A stretch of 64,000 bases of DNA from Escherichia coli (GTDB taxonomy: Bacteria > Pseudomonadota > Gammaproteobacteria > Enterobacterales > Enterobacteriaceae). This document shows positions 19,917 through 64,000 of the stretch, one piece after another; position 1 is the stretch's first letter, and each line of letters starts with the position of its first letter. The translations under genes were made by a program, and so were the position numbers. Under the pieces are notes generated by a model. That model was given only the letters and a program-made list of their open reading frames with translations. It did no database searches and was not told where the DNA came from. The stretch lies in assembly GCF_001677475.2 (NCBI RefSeq), contig NZ_CP015229.1; one strand, given 5' to 3'.

Positions 19917-20798
19917 TTATCCCGGCAAAAAACACTCTTCAACACACTGAATAAAAGTGTGCATCGCCGGGCTAACCGCTTTTCCAGCATGGTGTGCGCA
20001 CATTGCTGTAATCGTCTGCGACTGTTCGCCAAAAGGCAATTCGATTAACTCGCCGCTCGCCAATTCTTTTGCTACCGCAAAGCGCGGCAGGTAGCTGACC
20101 CCGATATTCGCCGCGACACAACGCTTGATGCTTTCGATACTTATAAGCTCAATGGTGTTTTCCACCGTGATCCGCCGCTGTCGCAGCGTGCTCTCAAATA
20201 TCTGCCGGAAGACACATTGCGGTTCATTGATAATAAAACTACAGGCGTTATGTATTCCCGGCTCAGTAAAATCGACATCTTTAATTTGCGGTGAAGCCAC
20301 CAGCACCAGTGATTGTTCACCCAACTCTCGTCGGTTCAGAGCATCATCATTCCCTACGCGATAAAAGACGCCAACATCGGCCTCATCATTCAGTAGCGCA
20401 TCACGGATCACGTAACAGTTCAGAGACTGCAACGATAAACGCACTTTTGGTGCGCGTTGCCGAAAACGCTGCAACACCTGCGGCATTCGGTAAGAAAGCA
20501 ACGTTTCGCCTGAAACAACGCGTAGTTCCCCGTCCGGATCCGACTCTTTTTTGGCAGCCTCACGAAGGGTATCCATCACTCTGGTGAGTTCATAAATGTG
20601 CGGCAGCAGCTTTTTTCCTTCGCGGGTAAGGCACATTCGTCGACCAATTTTCTCAAATAACTGGACTGAGAACTCCTGCTCAAGCTGCTGAATATGAAAA
20701 GTCACCGTCGATTGTGTGCAGCACAATTTTTGCGAAGCTCGCAAGAAGGAACCCTCTTCCATCACGGTTTTAAGCGTAATAAAACGGCGCAGATCCAT
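19917..20798 (-). CDS. yfiE: LysR-type transcriptional regulator
   Basis: 293 aa from MDLRRFITLKTVMEEGSF; LTTR HTH; divergent from eamB. Confidence 0.9.
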   Translation of the reverse strand: MDLRRFITLKTVMEEGSFLRASQKLCCTQSTVTFHIQQLEQEFSVQLFEKIGRRMCLTREGKKLLPHIYELTRVMDTLREAAKKESDPDGELRVVSGETLLSYRMPQVLQRFRQRAPKVRLSLQSLNCYVIRDALLNDEADVGVFYRVGNDDALNRRELGEQSLVLVASPQIKDVDFTEPGIHNACSFIINEPQCVFRQIFESTLRQRRITVENTIELISIESIKRCVAANIGVSYLPRFAVAKELASGELIELPFGEQSQTITAMCAHHAGKAVSPAMHTFIQCVEECFLPG

Positions 20799-20900
20799 AA
20801 CCCCAAACCTATCGAAAATATCGAATTTAGAATGTAAAAACATTCATTTTTTTTAATGTTACGTGTCGGGTACTGTCTACCAAAACAGAGGAGATAACAA

Positions 20901-21488
20901 GTGACACCGACCCTTTTAAGTGCTTTTTGGACTTACACCCTGATTACCGCCATGACGCCAGGACCGAACAATATTCTCGCCCTTAGCTCAGCCACAACGC
21001 ACGGATTTCGTCAGAGTACTCGCGTGCTGGCAGGGATGAGTCTGGGATTTTTAATCGTCATGTTGCTATGCGCGGGAATTTCGTTTTCACTGGCTGTTAT
21101 CGACCCGGCAGCAGTGCATCTGTTGAGTTGGGCGGGGGCGGCATATATTGTCTGGCTGGCGTGGAAAATCGCTACCAGTCCAACAAAGGAAGATGGGCTT
21201 CAGACAAAACCAATCAGTTTTTGGGCCAGCTTTGCTTTGCAGTTTGTGAACGTCAAAATCATTTTGTATGGCATTACAGCACTGTCGACGTTTGTCCTGC
21301 CGCAAACGCAGGCGCTAAGCTGGATAATTGGCGTCAGCGTTTTGCTGGCGATGATTGGGACGTTTGGCAATGTGTGCTGGGCGCTGGCGGGGCACCTGTT
21401 TCAGCGATTGTTTCGCCAGTATGGTCGCCAGTTAAATATCGTGCTCGCGCTGCTGCTGGTCTATTGCGCGGTACGCATTTTCTATTAA
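20901..21488 (+). CDS. eamB: cysteine/O-acetylserine exporter (LysE/RhtB family)
   Basis: 195 aa with GTG start; multi-TM LysE-type profile; matches recalled EamB (YfiK). Confidence 0.92.
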   Translation: MTPTLLSAFWTYTLITAMTPGPNNILALSSATTHGFRQSTRVLAGMSLGFLIVMLLCAGISFSLAVIDPAAVHLLSWAGAAYIVWLAWKIATSPTKEDGLQTKPISFWASFALQFVNVKIILYGITALSTFVLPQTQALSWIIGVSVLLAMIGTFGNVCWALAGHLFQRLFRQYGRQLNIVLALLLVYCAVRIFY

Positions 21489-55625: not shown

Positions 55626-55709
55626 TACAGTGGCGAACTCCGGTTCGCCTTTCTTATCGCCGCCTTTTAGGATTCCATCAATTCCTTCCTTTTACTTCAC
55701 AATGCAATA

Positions 55710-56351
55710 ATGACATTTCAATTATTCGGAAAGGATATCAATGTTATGTCAGAAGATTATGTAATTGAGTGGGATAAGGATTTTGAAGACGATCTCAACG
55801 TTGTCGCCAGCGTGTTTTTCCCCCACAAGCCAACGCTATGGTCTGGTATCGTCTCTCAACTTGCCACCACTCCTGAAATCTTTGAAGACGAAGATGAGGA
55901 CGAATATGGATTGCAAGACGTTCTCGATTGTAGCGGTGGCGATTTAGGAAATGACGCATTGGGGCAAGCATTTTTACAAATCCTACGCATCGAAGGATTA
56001 ATCCATATTGTTGACTGGAAAGGCGAAGAAGAAGATGGTGAGCTGGCTAATTTTGCTGCTGACCGCTTCTACGATCTGTGTAAAGACCTGACAGCCTCAG
56101 AGACATTACGAAGTCTGCTTATCGACATAACTCAGGAAGATGAAATTGCAGATGCCTGCGAAGATGGTGATCGTTACCTTGACGAGATCTTTGGACGCAT
56201 TCAGGACCAGCTTAATGAACGGGGCTACCAAATTTTCAATCTGAATGAAGGAACAGATAGTTATAACGTGGCCGTTCTGCCAATGAACGAATATAAAAAA
56301 ATAGATGATTTCAACACGCCGTGGCTGGAAGTACAGGATTTTTTAAGCTAA
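55710..56351 (+). CDS. hypothetical highly acidic cytoplasmic protein (no recognised family); ORF sits in the yfjD-grpE spacer
   Basis: Clean 213-codon ORF with no competing frame; likely start ATG 55746 (AAGGA 10 nt upstream, 201 aa); hand count 29 Asp + 22 Glu vs 7 Lys + 6 Arg; no TM segment or signal peptide; appears AT-rich by eye relative to flanking genes. Confidence 0.6.
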   Translation: MTFQLFGKDINVMSEDYVIEWDKDFEDDLNVVASVFFPHKPTLWSGIVSQLATTPEIFEDEDEDEYGLQDVLDCSGGDLGNDALGQAFLQILRIEGLIHIVDWKGEEEDGELANFAADRFYDLCKDLTASETLRSLLIDITQEDEIADACEDGDRYLDEIFGRIQDQLNERGYQIFNLNEGTDSYNVAVLPMNEYKKIDDFNTPWLEVQDFLS

Positions 56352-56377
56352 AAAAATGGCCGACTTCGCGTCGGCCA
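56350..56377 (-). terminator. rho-independent terminator after grpE (bidirectional hairpin shared with the acidic ORF)
   Basis: Hairpin TGGCCGAC-gcgaa-GTCGGCCA followed by a T7 run on the minus strand, 8 nt after the grpE stop. Confidence 0.75.
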
Positions 56378-56385
56378 TCAGATAT

Positions 56386-57009
<624 letters not shown>

Positions 57010-57021
57010 CTAACTTCGCTT

Positions 57022-57050
57022 ATTATGGGGATCAGTTTCAGGGTTTCAAG
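57022..57050 (-). promoter_or_regulatory. sigma-32 heat-shock promoter of grpE
   Basis: Minus strand CTTGAAA - 13 nt - CCCCATAAT, near-consensus sigma-32 promoter. Confidence 0.75.
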
Positions 57051-57098
57051 GGAAGCACTCACATTGTCATCAATCTTCGCAACAAGGACCTCGGAAAA

Positions 57099-57977
57099 AT
57101 GAATAATCATTTCAAGTGTATTGGCATTGTGGGACACCCACGGCACCCCACTGCACTGACAACACATGAAATGCTCTACCGCTGGCTGTGCACAAAAGGT
57201 TACGAGGTCATCGTTGAGCAACAAATCGCTCACGAACTGCAACTGAAGAATGTGAAAACTGGCACGCTCGCGGAGATTGGGCAACAGGCTGATCTCGCGG
57301 TTGTCGTTGGCGGCGACGGTAATATGCTGGGCGCAGCGCGCACACTCGCCCGCTACGACATAAAAGTCATCGGCATCAACCGTGGCAACCTGGGTTTCCT
57401 GACCGACCTTGATCCCGATAACGCCCAGCAACAGTTAGCCGATGTGCTGGAAGGCCACTACATCAGCGAAAAACGTTTTTTGCTGGAAGCGCAAGTCTGT
57501 CAGCAAGATTGCCAGAAACGCATCAGCACGGCGATTAACGAAGTGGTACTTCACCCTGGCAAAGTGGCGCATATGATTGAGTTCGAAGTATATATCGACG
57601 AGATCTTTGCGTTTTCTCAGCGTTCCGATGGCCTGATTATTTCGACGCCAACAGGTTCCACCGCTTATTCCCTCTCAGCGGGAGGTCCGATTCTGACACC
57701 GTCTCTGGATGCGATTACCCTGGTGCCCATGTTCCCGCATACGTTGTCAGCACGACCACTGGTCATAAACAGCAGCAGCACGATCCGTCTGCGTTTTTCG
57801 CATCGCCGTAACGACCTGGAAATCAGTTGCGACAGCCAGATAGCACTGCCTATTCAGGAAGGTGAAGATGTCCTGATTCGTCGCTGTGATTACCATCTGA
57901 ATCTAATTCATCCGAAAGATTACAGTTATTTCAATACATTAAGCACCAAGCTCGGCTGGTCAAAAAAATTATTCTAA
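57099..57977 (+). CDS. nadK: NAD kinase
   Basis: 292 aa; GGDG motif ([14 protein letters not shown]). Confidence 0.96.
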
Positions 57978-57994
57978 TTTTACGCTAGCCTCTT

Positions 57995-58054
57995 TACTGT
58001 ATATAAAACCAGTTTATACTGTACACAATAACAGTAATGGTTTTTCATACAGGA
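57995..58054. promoter_or_regulatory. LexA (SOS) boxes of the recN promoter
   Basis: TACTGTATATAAAACCAGTT (57995-58014), TACTGTACACAATAACAGTA (58017-58036) and a weaker third CTGT..ACAG-like site to 58054; CTGT-N8-ACAG consensus. Confidence 0.75.
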
Positions 58055-58062
58055 AAACAACT

Positions 58063-59724
58063 ATGTTGGCACAACTGACCATCAGCAACTTTGCTATCGT
58101 TCGTGAGCTTGAGATTGATTTTCATAGCGGCATGACCGTAATAACTGGCGAGACCGGCGCGGGTAAATCTATTGCAATAGATGCCCTCGGTCTTTGTCTC
58201 GGTGGTCGCGCTGAAGCCGACATGGTGCGTACCGGCGCTGCTCGCGCTGACCTGTGCGCCCGTTTTTCTCTGAAAGATACGCCAGCGGCTCTGCGCTGGC
58301 TGGAAGAAAACCAGCTTGAAGACGGGCATGAATGTTTGCTTCGTCGCGTAATCAGCAACGATGGTCGCTCACGAGGTTTTATCAACGGTACAGCTGTTCC
58401 TCTGTCACAACTGCGCGAACTGGGTCAGTTGCTCATTCAGATCCATGGTCAGCACGCTCATCAGTTACTCACCAAACCCGAGCACCAAAAATTCCTGCTT
58501 GATGGCTATGCCAATGAAACCTCTCTACTTCAGGAAATGACCGCACGTTATCAGTTGTGGCATCAAAGCTGCCGTGACCTCGCGCATCATCAACAGTTAA
58601 GTCAGGAACGCGCCGCCCGTGCGGAACTGCTGCAATACCAATTAAAAGAACTTAACGAATTTAATCCGCAGCCCGGAGAGTTTGAGCAAATCGACGAAGA
58701 GTACAAACGTCTGGCGAACAGCGGTCAATTGCTGACCACCAGCCAGAATGCATTGGCATTAATGGCCGACGGTGAAGACGCAAACCTGCAAAGTCAGCTT
58801 TACACGGCTAAACAACTGGTGAGCGAATTGATTGGCATGGACAGCAAACTGTCCGGCGTACTTGATATGCTGGAAGAAGCTACCATCCAGATTGCTGAAG
58901 CCAGCGACGAACTGCGCCACTACTGCGATCGTCTGGATCTCGATCCCAACCGACTGTTTGAACTTGAACAGCGCATCTCAAAACAGATTTCGCTGGCACG
59001 TAAACATCACGTCAGCCCTGAGGCATTACCACAGTATTACCAGTCGTTACTGGAAGAACAGCAGCAACTGGACGATCAGGCCGACTCACAAGAAACGCTC
59101 GCGCTGGCGGTAACGAAACATCATCAGCAGGCACTGGAAACCGCGCGCGCATTACATAAACAACGCCAGCAATATGCAGAAGAACTTGCACAGCTGATCA
59201 CCGACAGTATGCATGCGCTCTCAATGCCGCATGGGCAGTTTACGATCGATGTTAAATTTGACGAGCATCACCTGGGCGCTGACGGTGCCGATCGTATTGA
59301 GTTTCGGGTAACCACCAACCCAGGTCAGCCAATGCAGCCTATTGCCAAAGTCGCATCCGGTGGTGAATTGTCCCGCATCGCATTGGCAATCCAGGTCATC
59401 ACGGCGCGTAAAATGGAAACCCCGGCACTGATTTTTGATGAAGTGGATGTAGGGATTAGCGGTCCAACAGCGGCAGTTGTCGGCAAACTGCTGCGTCAAC
59501 TCGGCGAATCAACTCAGGTGATGTGTGTTACCCACCTGCCACAAGTCGCGGGATGTGGTCATCAACACTATTTTGTCAGCAAAGAAACCGATGGTGCGAT
59601 GACAGAAACACACATGCAATCCCTGGATAAAAAAGCGCGGTTACAAGAGCTGGCGCGCCTGCTTGGTGGCAGTGAAGTCACACGTAATACACTGGCGAAT
59701 GCGAAAGAACTGCTTGCGGCGTAA
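58063..59724 (+). CDS. recN: DNA repair protein RecN (SMC-like)
   Basis: 553 aa; Walker A GETGAGKS and C-terminal signature region. Confidence 0.96.
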
Positions 59725-59872
59725 ACTTTTTTCCTGCTTCACGGTCAGAGTAAACAGCAAAACGCCGTAAGACCGGAAAGCAAAAGGTTTTAAAGTGATG
59801 AAAGGTCTATTATCATCGGCATATTACAGATGAGCCACGTACTGCTCGGGCCCGAAAAGGAATCAAATCACT

Positions 59873-60214
59873 ATGCGCTGTAAAACGCTGACTGCTGCAG
59901 CAGCAGTACTATTGATGTTGACCGCAGGCTGTTCCACTCTGGAGCGAGTGGTTTACCGTCCTGACATCAACCAGGGGAACTATCTGACCGCTAACGACGT
60001 ATCCAAAATACGTGTTGGCATGACGCAACAACAAGTTGCGTACGCATTGGGTACACCGCTGATGTCCGATCCATTTGGTACGAATACCTGGTTCTATGTC
60101 TTCCGCCAGCAACCAGGTCATGAAGGTGTAACGCAGCAAACGCTGACGCTGACCTTTAACAGTAGCGGTGTGTTGACCAATATTGATAACAAACCTGCGC
60201 TGAGTGGTAACTAA
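59873..60214 (+). CDS. bamE: outer membrane protein assembly factor BamE (SmpA)
   Basis: 113 aa; lipobox LTAGCS. Confidence 0.95.
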
Positions 60215-60242
60215 TAATAATAAAGTTGCTCTCAAAGACGTT

Positions 60243-60272
60243 AAAAAAGGTGCTCAATGAGCACCTTTTTTC
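60243..60272. terminator. bidirectional terminator between bamE and ratB
   Basis: Hairpin AGGTGCTC-aatg-AGCACCT flanked by an A6 run upstream and a T6 run downstream. Confidence 0.7.
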
Positions 60273-60278
60273 TGTCTG

Positions 60279-60569
60279 TTATTTATTCGCTGATTTTTCT
60301 GCTCGTTGCCTGCGAAGCTCTTTCGGATCGGCAATGAGAGGACGATAAATCTCCACCCGATCGCCATCATGTACAATATCGCTGAGTTTTGCCGGACGGC
60401 TGTAAATGCCGACTTTGTTTTTAGTTAAATCGATATCGGTACGCAATTCCAGCAAGCCACTGGCGCGAATAGCTTCTTCAACCGTCGCGCCCTCCTGCAG
60501 CGTCACGCGCTGCAGATACTGCTTCTCAGGTAGCGCATAAGCCACCTCAACGGCAATTTTACCTGGCAC
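60279..60569 (-). CDS. ratB: UPF0125 protein RatB (YfjF)
   Basis: 96 aa from GTG at 60567-60569 ([20 protein letters not shown]); the ORF track gives a 124-aa upstream-extended form. Confidence 0.85.
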
Positions 60570-61035
60570 TGTAAACCTCTTTCGCACGAACCGTAAAAGC
60601 CTGGACCATATTAGCCGCCAGTTCTTTAAACACGCGGCCAAAGGCGAGTTCAATCAACTTATTGGTAAACTCAAAATCGAGATGAAACTCGATACGGCAC
60701 GCCTCCTGACTCAGCGGCGTAAACTTCCAGCCACCGATCAATTTCTTGAACGGCCCATCCACCAGATTCATAAGAATACTTTGGTTACTGGTTAACTGGT
60801 TGCGGGTAGTAAACGTTTTGCTGATCCCAGCCTTAGAGACATCTACCGCCGCAGTCATCTGCCCAGGAGTGGACTCCAGAATCCGACTTCCGGTACAACC
60901 CGGCAAAAACTGAGGATAAGACTGAACGTCATTCACTAACTGATACATTTGCTCCGCGCTGTAGGGTACCAGTGCGGTCCGGCTAATCTGAGGCATAACA
61001 ATTTCCATCAACAAAAATCCAACAAATAATATCAT
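60559..61035 (-). CDS. ratA: ribosome association toxin RatA (YfjG), SRPBCC/polyketide-cyclase fold
   Basis: 158-aa ORF; overlaps ratB by 11 nt; start could instead be the internal MPQIS Met. Confidence 0.88.
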
Positions 61036-61166
61036 TTATCCTGCTGTAAAAAAAACGCTATCCCGGCGCTGGGTAACATCGGGTTCATGCTAAGATAGAG
61101 CCTTGTCCCCCGCAGGATTGATATGGGGTGTTTTCGATTTCAGATTACCGATGATTCACGACGCTT

Positions 61167-61649
61167 ATGACGAAGAAAAAAGCACATAAACCTGGTTCAG
61201 CGACCATCGCGCTTAACAAGCGCGCCCGTCACGAATACTTTATCGAAGAAGAGTTCGAAGCGGGACTTGCCCTGCAAGGCTGGGAGGTTAAATCCCTGCG
61301 CGCAGGAAAAGCCAATATCAGCGACAGCTACGTCCTTCTGCGTGACGGAGAGGCATTTCTGTTTGGCGCTAACATCACGCCAATGGCTGTGGCCTCCACG
61401 CATGTGGTGTGCGATCCTACCCGTACCCGCAAGTTACTTCTCAACCAGCGCGAACTGGACTCATTGTACGGTCGCGTCAATCGAGAAGGCTATACCGTAG
61501 TGGCGCTCTCCCTGTACTGGAAAAATGCCTGGTGCAAAGTGAAAATCGGCGTCGCCAAAGGTAAGAAACAGCATGATAAACGTTCAGATATCAAAGAACG
61601 CGAATGGCAGGTGGATAAAGCGCGTATCATGAAAAACGCCCACCGTTAA
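61167..61649 (+). CDS. smpB: SsrA-binding protein SmpB
   Basis: 160 aa from [29 protein letters not shown]. Confidence 0.97.
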
Positions 61650-61819
61650 ACCTGCACTGCAATTATTGACCCGCTCCTCACCGCGCCTCCCTCTCCGGCG
61701 GCGCGAATGCACATCTTATTGGCTATCACATCCGACACAAATGTTGCCATCCCATTGCTTAATCGAATAAAAATCAGGCTACATGGGTGCTAAATCTTTA
61801 ACGATAACGCCATTGAGGC

Positions 61820-61863: not shown

Positions 61864-62226
61864 GGGGCTGATTCTGGATTCGACGGGATTTGCGAAACCC
61901 AAGGTGCATGCCGAGGGGCGGTTGGCCTCGTAAAAAGCCGCAAAAAATAGTCGCAAACGACGAAAACTACGCTTTAGCAGCTTAATAACCTGCTTAGAGC
62001 CCTCTCTCCCTAGCCTCCGCTCTTAGGACGGGGATCAAGAGAGGTCAAACCCAAAAGAGATCGCGTGGAAGCCCTGCCTGGGGTTGAAGCGTTAAAACTT
62101 AATCAGGCTAGTTTGTTAGTGGCGTGTCCGTCCGCAGCTGGCAAGCGAATGTAAAGACTGACTAAGCATGTAGTACCGAGGATGTAGGAATTTCGGACGC
62201 GGGTTCAACTCCCGCCAGCTCCACCA
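61864..62226 (+). ncRNA. ssrA: tmRNA (SsrA), 363 nt, ending CCA
   Basis: 5' GGGGCUGAUUCUGGAUUCGACGGG, tag-coding region ...GCAAACGACGAAAACUACGCUUUAGCAGCUUAA, 3' GGGUUCAACUCCCGCCAGCUCCACCA. Confidence 0.97.
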
Positions 62227-62424: not shown

Positions 62425-62997
62425 TTACGTAACGTCAAACGCTCTGATTGAACGCAAATCATCCAGATTATTCAGTTGTTCCTTCATCTCGCGCTGGCGT
62501 TCGTGGATTTTAAAGCCCTCCGCCACCATGGCCACCATCATGGCATCGTTCAGCGCAATAAGTTTCTCCCTGGTCAGTATGACGTTGTTATTATCCGCAT
62601 CAGTCCAGAAAAAACCATCCGGAAGCAGTCCGGCCTGCGCTGTTGCAACCACGGGCGCAAGGCGTGACTGCGAGGTTTTTCCGCCATCAAAACGACGGCC
62701 ATCAAACGTGAAAATAAACTCAACGTTTTCCTGACTGTCGCGCCATGCCTCAATTTCCCGCCTTTTGGCATCCTTTGCCGCTGCAATAAGTTCCGGCGTG
62801 ACGGTGAACGGGGCGATTTCGCCCCATTTCCCGCTTTGCAGCTCCTGCCAGACATGCTGGCCTGTCGGGGCCATATCATCCTGTATGGCGGTATACAGGA
62901 CGAACTCCGTTTCACCTTCAAATAACACCTCGCAGTCAACCGCACCATTTTCAAGATAATGCGCGTTTCTGATGCCTTTCACCGCTCTGATTTTCAT
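62425..62997 (-). CDS. tfa: phage tail fibre assembly protein (Tfa-like chaperone)
   Basis: 190-aa ORF starting MKIRAVKGIRNAHYLENGAVDC, resembling lambdoid/K-12 cryptic-prophage Tfa N-termini; AAGGAA RBS; lies 14 nt downstream of the stf stop. Confidence 0.8.
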   Translation of the reverse strand: MKIRAVKGIRNAHYLENGAVDCEVLFEGETEFVLYTAIQDDMAPTGQHVWQELQSGKWGEIAPFTVTPELIAAAKDAKRREIEAWRDSQENVEFIFTFDGRRFDGGKTSQSRLAPVVATAQAGLLPDGFFWTDADNNNVILTREKLIALNDAMMVAMVAEGFKIHERQREMKEQLNNLDDLRSIRAFDVT

Positions 62998-63011: not shown

Positions 63012-64000
63012 TTACTCAATGCGTACAAAAAGACCGATATAGCCACGCGTTGTATCGTGACTAATGCGGGTCCCCGAAAGCGCCGTGTAACGACCGGGGA
63101 AGTTGTATTCACCAGCACCGCCAATCACAACCTGCGGTGAGGATGCGTATGTCCCTGTATCGCTAACCCGTGCACTCATAGCCAGAGGGCCAAGACGGGA
63201 ACCCGGCACAATATCACCGAGCCCCAGAGACGCATCTGCACCAAAACTCTCCCCCTGATATGCCGCCATAATCGGCACACCAACGGCCGGGTATTTATAA
63301 TATGAGCCTGAGCCCGCCATCCTGGACAGCAGGTACGCCAGTGAATCTCCGTCGTATACAACTACCCGCGATGACATGTTCCAGCTGTTATCGCTGTCGT
63401 TGTACCGGTACTGCATATAGTGAATACAGTGTTCACCCTGATAATACTGGTTGTAGCACATCAGGGTTTTAAATTTGCGGACTGTGTCGGATTCACTGTT
63501 GGCGTACGGTGACCACATCACATCAATAATGCCGTTAAATTGCGTGGTACCGGTAAGCAGTTGCGAGGAGTCTGTAATACTGACCGCATACCGCCCCGGC
63601 GTGACTTTCTTCAACCACTCAACGAAATCAGACAGCCCCTCAAACGCCAGAGCGTCAGTGCTGGTGAATGCCTGTCCAAACCCATACATCCCGGACAGGG
63701 CCAGCCTGCCCGGTGTGCGGTCACGGATATCACTCTGGGGTTCCATCGTCGCAGCCGCGTTCAGCTCAAGCTCCGTGCGCATGGCTTCAGCCGTGTCATG
63801 CGCCAGTAATGCGCGGCCCTTCTCTGACAGCAGAGACAGTGAGGCATTCCCGTCTGTATTGAAGTACAGAAGATTATCTGCCCGTTGCGTCAGTGCGCTG
63901 ATTGCCGTTAAGACGTCATTAAGCGGTTGTTTGCCTGCCAGCGCGTTTGTGATTGTCGTCGCAAAGTTCGGGTCATTGCCCAGCGCCGCTGCCAGCTCGT
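63012..64000 (-). CDS. stf: phage side tail fibre protein (Stf-like), C-terminal ~329 codons; 5' end beyond window
   Basis: Minus-strand frame open from the window edge (hand translation 63783-63998 has no stop); contains the motif ALAGKQPLNDVLTAISALTQRADNLLYFNTDGNASLSLLSEKGRALLA, similar to the conserved shaft segment of lambda/Rac/e14 Stf; followed by tfa. Confidence 0.8.
   Translation of the reverse strand, partial: ELAAALGNDPNFATTITNALAGKQPLNDVLTAISALTQRADNLLYFNTDGNASLSLLSEKGRALLAHDTAEAMRTELELNAAATMEPQSDIRDRTPGRLALSGMYGFGQAFTSTDALAFEGLSDFVEWLKKVTPGRYAVSITDSSQLLTGTTQFNGIIDVMWSPYANSESDTVRKFKTLMCYNQYYQGEHCIHYMQYRYNDSDNSWNMSSRVVVYDGDSLAYLLSRMAGSGSYYKYPAVGVPIMAAYQGESFGADASLGLGDIVPGSRLGPLAMSARVSDTGTYASSPQVVIGGAGEYNFPGRYTALSGTRISHDTTRGYIGLFVRIE

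Follow-up and report, generated by a model that had tools for sequence, protein, structure and literature searches.

The window analysed in the present study is a stretch of 64,000 nucleotides of Escherichia coli (contig NZ_CP015229.1), and the region of interest lies at positions 57995-58054, between the genes nadK and recN. The gene order at this place, grpE-nadK-recN-bamE-yfjF-ratA-smpB-ssrA, is the same as in E. coli K-12, so the recN locus is syntenic between the two. The gap between the end of nadK at 57977 and the start of recN at 58063 measures 85 bp, and its GC content is 31%. The 301 bp across the nadK/recN junction found a match in 5425 of 5426 complete E. coli genomes. They have 99.3% DNA identity to genomes in which the two genes are annotated as nadK and recN, the downstream open reading frame being called 'DNA repair protein RecN' there. 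The boxes described below thus stand directly upstream of recN, as had been claimed in an earlier note made from the letters of this stretch. The features of the locus are as follows, the coding sequence of recN being taken from the list of open reading frames.

57099-57977, plus strand: nadK, the upstream neighbour; its stop codon is 15 bp ahead of the -35 hexamer
57993-57998, plus strand: predicted recN -35 hexamer TTTACT, which shares its last four bases with the beginning of box 1
57995-58014: LexA box 1, TACTGTATATAAAACCAGTT, core CTGT-N8-CCAG with one mismatch to CTGT-N8-ACAG; the strongest box, spanning the -35 hexamer and spacer
58015-58020, plus strand: predicted recN -10 hexamer TATACT, made of the 2-bp gap between boxes 1 and 2 and the first four bases of box 2
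58017-58036: LexA box 2, TACTGTACACAATAACAGTA, with a perfect CTGT-N8-ACAG core; it spans the -10 hexamer and the predicted start
58027, plus strand: inferred transcription start, predicted at 7 nt past the -10 hexamer
58035-58054: LexA box 3, TAATGGTTTTTCATACAGGA, core ATGG-N8-ACAG with two mismatches; weak, in the leader
58051-58054, plus strand: recN Shine-Dalgarno sequence AGGA, 8 nt ahead of the ATG, lying within the right-hand end of box 3
58063-59724, plus strand: recN coding sequence, 553 aa, protein ending in ...ELLAA; the gene that the boxes would regulate

By direct reading, the 60 bp are TACTGTATATAAAACCAGTT-TA-TACTGTACACAATAACAGTA, followed by ATGGTTTTTCATACAGGA, and the coordinates 57995-58054 coincide exactly with the outer limits of three 20-mers, boxes 1 to 3. 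Boxes 2 and 3 have 2 bp in common, and the boxes end 48 bp (box 1), 26 bp (box 2) and 8 bp (box 3) before the recN ATG at 58063. The LexA box (SOS box) of Gammaproteobacteria is a 20-bp imperfect palindrome, TACTG(TA)5CAGTA. The boxes had been described in the earlier note as of the CTGT-N8-ACAG type; this holds without change for box 2 and has to be refined for the strongest one, box 1, in which the right half is CCAG and not ACAG. As for the product of the gene, RecN is known to be degraded by ClpXP via C-terminal signals (PMC10714372).

The boxes had also been said to overlap the recN promoter, and the promoter scan is in line with this statement. The sole sigma-70-like match in 57850-58150 is TTTACT, a 16-bp spacer and TATACT (9 of 12 matches), and it lies under boxes 1 and 2: box 1 overlaps the -35 hexamer, box 2 overlaps the -10 hexamer and the predicted start, and box 3 would be placed at about +9 to +28. 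Furthermore, C57992, T57993 and T57994, together with the TA at 58015-58016 between the boxes, are outside the LexA 20-mers and are at least 90% conserved in 59 canonical orthologous upstream regions, which supports the predicted -35 and -10 hexamers. The position of the boxes on the recN promoter is therefore supported, the promoter itself being predicted from its consensus match and its conservation. The start at 58027 corresponds to about 2751759 in K-12; Cappable-seq data showed neither a recN entry nor a coordinate beginning 27517, and no mapped start was found in the literature, so that this start stays predicted. In an Rfam scan of 57600-58400 at E<=1, there was no family match.

For the scoring of the sites, a symmetrised 20-bp weight matrix was made from 16 E. 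coli LexA boxes (PMC3009722, Table 4) with the recN sites excluded, and since these sites were left out of the matrix training, the scoring test is non-circular. Two strong boxes and a weaker third had been proposed in the earlier note, with matrix scoring as the way to check them. Far from scoring low, the three sites reached 25.55, 17.6 and 12.65 bits and took ranks 1, 2 and 3 among the 63,981 positions of the window. In leave-one-out scoring, the 16 known sites had between 4.8 and 28.3 bits (median 19.2), and boxes 1 and 2 score like known sites. With 300 dinucleotide-preserving shuffles of the whole window as the null, the mean maximum was 10.99 bits, and the expected number of sites per shuffled window was 0.24 at 12.65 bits or more, 0.02 at 17.6 bits or more and 0 at 25.55 bits or more; in none of the 300 shuffles were the top three matches within 60 bp. 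The core CTGT-N8-ACAG with at most one mismatch showed no enrichment in the window, with 25 matches where 18.9 +/- 4.7 were expected, and because the core by itself proves nothing, this bare pattern was dropped as a test and the weight matrix was used instead.

Our own heterology indices, calculated with the 16-site set, were 2.1, 5.9 and 8.8 in one orientation and 4.1, 9.2 and 12.2 when symmetrised, for boxes 1, 2 and 3, respectively. Fernandez de Henestrosa et al. in 2000 reportedly gave 5.16, 9.38 and 11.47 for the recN boxes; the two sets of figures are numerically not comparable, and they rank the boxes in the same way. The fourth-best matrix match of the window is TACTGTCTACCAAAACAGAG at 20871-20890, with 12.04 bits and a perfect CTGT-N8-ACAG core, in the 57-bp gap between the divergent open reading frames 19917-20843 (minus strand, 308 aa) and 20901-21488 (plus strand, 195 aa). 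By position and size, these flanking frames are presumably yfiE, a LysR-type regulator, and eamB, and if these identities are right, the palindrome may function as a LysR-type operator and not as a LexA site. Box 1 is given as the recN motif in Tables 4 and 7 of PMC3009722, and it differs at just two positions from the umuD/sbmC box. Single-box SOS promoters such as umuDC, sulA, recA and dinI (PMC3009722, Table 4) carry the same motif, but with one operator each.

To follow the sites across species, one genome per species was scanned for a degenerate pattern of LTISNFAIV, a peptide at the N-terminus of RecN, so that the boxes were not used for selection. Among the 120 matches listed (at least 120 exist), 113 loci were verified recN starts with enough upstream sequence, and they span many genera of Enterobacterales as well as Aeromonas, Zobellella, Oceanisphaera and others. 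With the same matrix, a box-1 site of at least 12.65 bits was found in 109 of the 113 loci and a box-2 site in 90, among the matches listed. In the same set of listed matches, the geometry is also kept: 103 of 113 loci have a distance of 22 bp between the starts of boxes 1 and 2, the end of box 1 is 46-49 bp from the ATG in 94 of 113, and the best box-3 candidate starts 18 bp past the start of box 2 in 95 of 113. The consensus of 59 unique sequences with canonical geometry is ....c.CTTTACTGTATA.AAAACCAGTtTATACTGTAtg.AAa.ACAGttaTG.ttTTt.atACAGGAaa...., in which box 1 hardly varies, box 2 retains TACTGTA...ACAG around a free centre, TG...ACAGGA is preserved in box 3 and the flanks drift. Half-sites are thus better conserved than centre and flanks at the orthologous loci, and the retention of the box 2 half-sites around a variable centre has the signature of a LexA site. 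In E. albertii, the centre of box 2 differs (TACTGTTCATATTAACAGTA) while boxes 1 and 3 are identical to those of the window. In four loci of Enterobacter and relatives (L008, L049, L059 and L095), an extra weak LexA-like site, TTCTGATTTTGCATCCAGTA, of 9-11 bits is present about 71 bp before the recN ATG; it lies upstream of box 1, and there is no counterpart in the window at 57972-57991.

Box 2 scored below 12.65 bits in 23 unique loci, 17 of which belong to Erwiniaceae among the matches listed, the other six being spread over Pectobacterium, Xenorhabdus, Brenneria and one further lineage. Within Erwiniaceae (Pantoea, Erwinia, Mixta), the right half-site of box 2 is typically gone (...AACCATAT; TACTGTATGAAAAACCATAT), which leaves at most 11 bits, and the left half, which is also the -10 hexamer, is retained. 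In this family box 3 typically has the consensus CTGT left half and scores 10-18 bits, as in ATCTGTGTATTTATACAGGA with 18.4 bits. The Erwiniaceae loci in question are L017, L021, L031, L040, L041, L053, L062, L065, L066, L068, L071, L094, L096, L102, L116 and L118. The scores of boxes 2 and 3 gave a Spearman rho of -0.33 with p = 5e-4, which is not a valid probability because 17 of the 23 weak-box-2 loci come from one family and maybe from one or few evolutionary events. This looks like operator turnover within one promoter in Erwiniaceae, and the apparent gain of box 3 supports this box as a functional LexA site.

Overall, the scores, the position on the predicted promoter and the conservation make it very probable that the 60 bp are the SOS operator-promoter of recN, repressed by LexA and inducible by damage. 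Several other explanations were considered. The three sites could be chance AT-rich palindromes without any regulatory role, given that the gap has only 31% GC and that the core with at most one mismatch was not enriched in the window; when the 85-bp gap alone was shuffled, however, 17.6 bits or more were reached in just 2 of 5000 trials and 25.55 bits or more in none of 5000. The ranks of 1 to 3 across the whole window also speak against chance, as do the spacing and half-sites kept over 113 loci and many genera while the flanks drift. This explanation is barely credible and is effectively refuted by the scores, the shuffles and the conservation. The region could also be a DnaA operator, with a DnaA-box-like 9-mer over a LexA box and with co-repression by DnaA that is independent of LexA. 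DnaA has been reported to co-repress recN from a DnaA box overlapping a LexA box (PMC6015884), and TTATATACA, with one mismatch to TTATNCACA, is indeed found on the minus strand at 57998-58006 within box 1, accompanied by two 2-mismatch matches in box 2. Against this, the 1-mismatch 9-mer is the reverse complement of the LexA core TGTATATAA and so arises automatically from a good LexA box, and matches with at most 2 mismatches are expected by chance at 0.87 per 100 bp of the window. In 107 of 111 orthologues, no DnaA match near box 2 comes closer than 2-3 mismatches, and the position of the best one is not fixed. The DnaA box of this region was rejected as a near-automatic by-product of the LexA core that is without positional conservation, and a separate DnaA operator here is improbable; as to control by DnaA in general, the sequence analysis speaks neither for nor against it, and it would in any case be an added layer and no alternative to LexA.

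Box 3 needs a separate consideration, since it could be argued that boxes 1 and 2 are the only operators and that box 3 is a translation signal, composed of the Shine-Dalgarno AGGA and a leader hairpin modulating the access of ribosomes. By score, box 3 is marginal on its own: its 12.65 bits are only 0.6 above the unrelated 12.04-bit site at 20871, and in most Enterobacteriaceae it has only 8.4 bits. Weak known sites have 4.8 (polB), 13.5 (dinB) and 13.5 bits (dinG), and the score of box 3 in the window is within this range. The third recN box of Salmonella was missed by FIMO and added by hand (PMC8072944). In addition, ACAGGA is invariant in canonical orthologues, and the right half of box 3 doubles as the ribosome-binding site because this motif includes the Shine-Dalgarno sequence. 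A predicted 7-bp hairpin of a U-rich and a purine-rich arm (58040-58046 with 58052-58058) would sequester it, with 86% of cells paired over 59 orthologues. The energy of this hairpin, however, is no better than that of shuffles (z = -0.75), slid controls already pair at 58-72% because a run of U can pair with any stretch of purines, and true compensatory changes are few. The hairpin leaves unexplained both the invariant TG at 58038-58039 and the conserved loop ATAC, which are positions that a LexA box requires. With a stability equal to that of shuffles and a weak covariation, the hairpin was rejected as the cause of box 3 conservation and is kept as a low-confidence rival only. A site as good as box 3 appeared in the 26 bp after box 2 in 3 of 5000 shuffles. 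Among 404 background 20-mers ending in ACAGGA, taken from 1.13 Mb of DNA, at most 0.7% reach 8.4 bits (3.6% in the AT-rich subset), against 72.5% of the 91 recN loci that end in ACAGG at the box-3 position, where 16.5% reach 12.6 bits; TG stands at the CTG position in 96.7% of these 91 loci. The conservation of box 3 is on this comparison far beyond what the constraint on a ribosome-binding site explains, and the Erwiniaceae sites with a full consensus CTGT left half, of up to 18.4 bits, also argue against translation as the sole role. A pure translation signal is for these reasons unlikely, if less so than a DnaA operator, and box 3 is most likely a weak LexA site.

A more far-reaching proposal can be made, tentatively and with more doubt than belief, that box 3 is a genuine third operator and that its bases serve at once as LexA half-site, Shine-Dalgarno sequence and hairpin arm, the strength of the box trading off against that of box 2 across Enterobacterales. 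If this were true, recN would offer a natural case in which to ask what purpose additional LexA sites serve, a question reported to be open even for the double operator of lexA (PMC7440846).

The earlier note had called the boxes intact in this strain, and comparison with other genomes agrees: the 60-mer 57995-58054 is identical to that of K-12 MG1655 and of IAI39, and 5357 of 5425 complete E. coli genomes contain it at 100% identity. The recN operator-promoter of K-12 has all 60 bp, the distance to the ATG and the flanking nadK and recN the same as here, with zero differences within the boxes. Two differences from K-12 are present outside them. At 57986, which is 9 bp upstream of box 1, the window has T where K-12 has C, and this T is found in neither K-12 nor IAI39; at 58059, in the leader, the window has A, as does IAI39, and K-12 has G. 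Both positions fall in columns without cross-species conservation. The surrounding core genome is more divergent, as the 5.4 kb at 56400-61800 have at most 98.4% identity to any of 5426 complete E. coli genomes, the best matches including strain ST2747. This level of identity over 5.4 kb implies that the window comes from an Escherichia lineage outside the sampled genomes, and the 60-bp operator is still unchanged.

Some further differences from K-12 were observed in the neighbourhood. At 55626-56385, between yfjD/corB and grpE, there are about 700 bp of extra DNA, the gap being 760 bp here and 54 bp in K-12, and DNA like this insert is present in only 303 of 5426 complete E. coli genomes. It holds an open reading frame at 55710-56351 (plus strand) for a very acidic protein of 213 aa, of which the best matches, at 98.5% identity, are annotated as 'DUF6630 family protein'. 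On the other side, the tmRNA gene ssrA is located at 61864-62226, with the tag ANDENYALAA. After ssrA, where K-12 has the CP4-57 integrase intA, minus-strand open reading frames are found at 62425-62997 (190 aa) and 63012-63782 (256 aa), and the ssrA integration site appears to be occupied by an element other than that of K-12. A LexA-like palindrome of 9.6 bits is present at 63852-63871.

From established knowledge of the SOS response and the cited papers, we infer how the region would work. In undamaged cells, LexA dimers on box 1 (over the -35 hexamer) and box 2 (over the -10 hexamer and the start) would exclude RNA polymerase, and box 3, 18 bp further on in the leader, would add a third dimer that probably tightens or prolongs the repression, this being the least certain step. 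After DNA damage, RecA filaments would promote the self-cleavage of LexA, the boxes would be vacated, and the promoter would become active and lead to rapid synthesis of RecN at high level. Since the operator is identical to that of K-12, K-12-like repression and induction are expected here. The suggestion of tight SOS control is consistent with the literature, in which three SOS boxes and a tight regulation by LexA are described for E. coli recN (PMC10714372, PMC3323433, PMC7440846); the three boxes of K-12 recN go back to Rostas et al. 1987, as cited in PMC10714372 and PMC7440846. In E. coli K-12, recN is strongly induced by UV (PMC3009722), and its dependence on lexA was reported with recN-lacZ in a lexA deletion (PMC6015884). 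In Salmonella Typhimurium, the three LexA boxes of recN stand 48, 26 and 8 bp before the ATG, and nalidixic acid induces the gene 39-fold (PMC8072944), so that the number of boxes and their distances to the ATG are the same as in the window. The heterology indices of the Salmonella boxes (8.82, 7.72 and 12.97) make the middle box the best (PMC8072944), whereas in the window box 1 is clearly the best.

The three-box feature of recN is already known, and recN stands with lexA and the colicin genes as the classic cases of SOS promoters with several operators (PMC7440846). Like recN, lexA with two boxes and the plasmid colicin genes with two overlapping ones have several LexA sites packed on one promoter; recN differs from them in having three sites, with starts 22 and 18 bp apart and an overlap of 2 bp between boxes 2 and 3. 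Cooperative or fine-tuning roles have been proposed for multiple LexA sites, and at the lexA promoter the effect of the double operator against a single one was negligible (PMC7440846), so that a functional gain from multiple boxes cannot be assumed. In the literature, we found no dissection of the recN operators comparable to that of lexA.

In conclusion, the recN gene of a divergent Escherichia lineage keeps the canonical SOS control region, and tight repression and strong induction by damage would be expected for it as for recN of K-12. For the window itself, the value of this result is in annotation only, and the understanding of the SOS system is unchanged. What is added is the survey of 113 loci selected independently of the boxes, which points to selection on the weak third box as a LexA-type site. 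The swap of strength between boxes 2 and 3 in Erwiniaceae is a possible guide to why recN has three operators.
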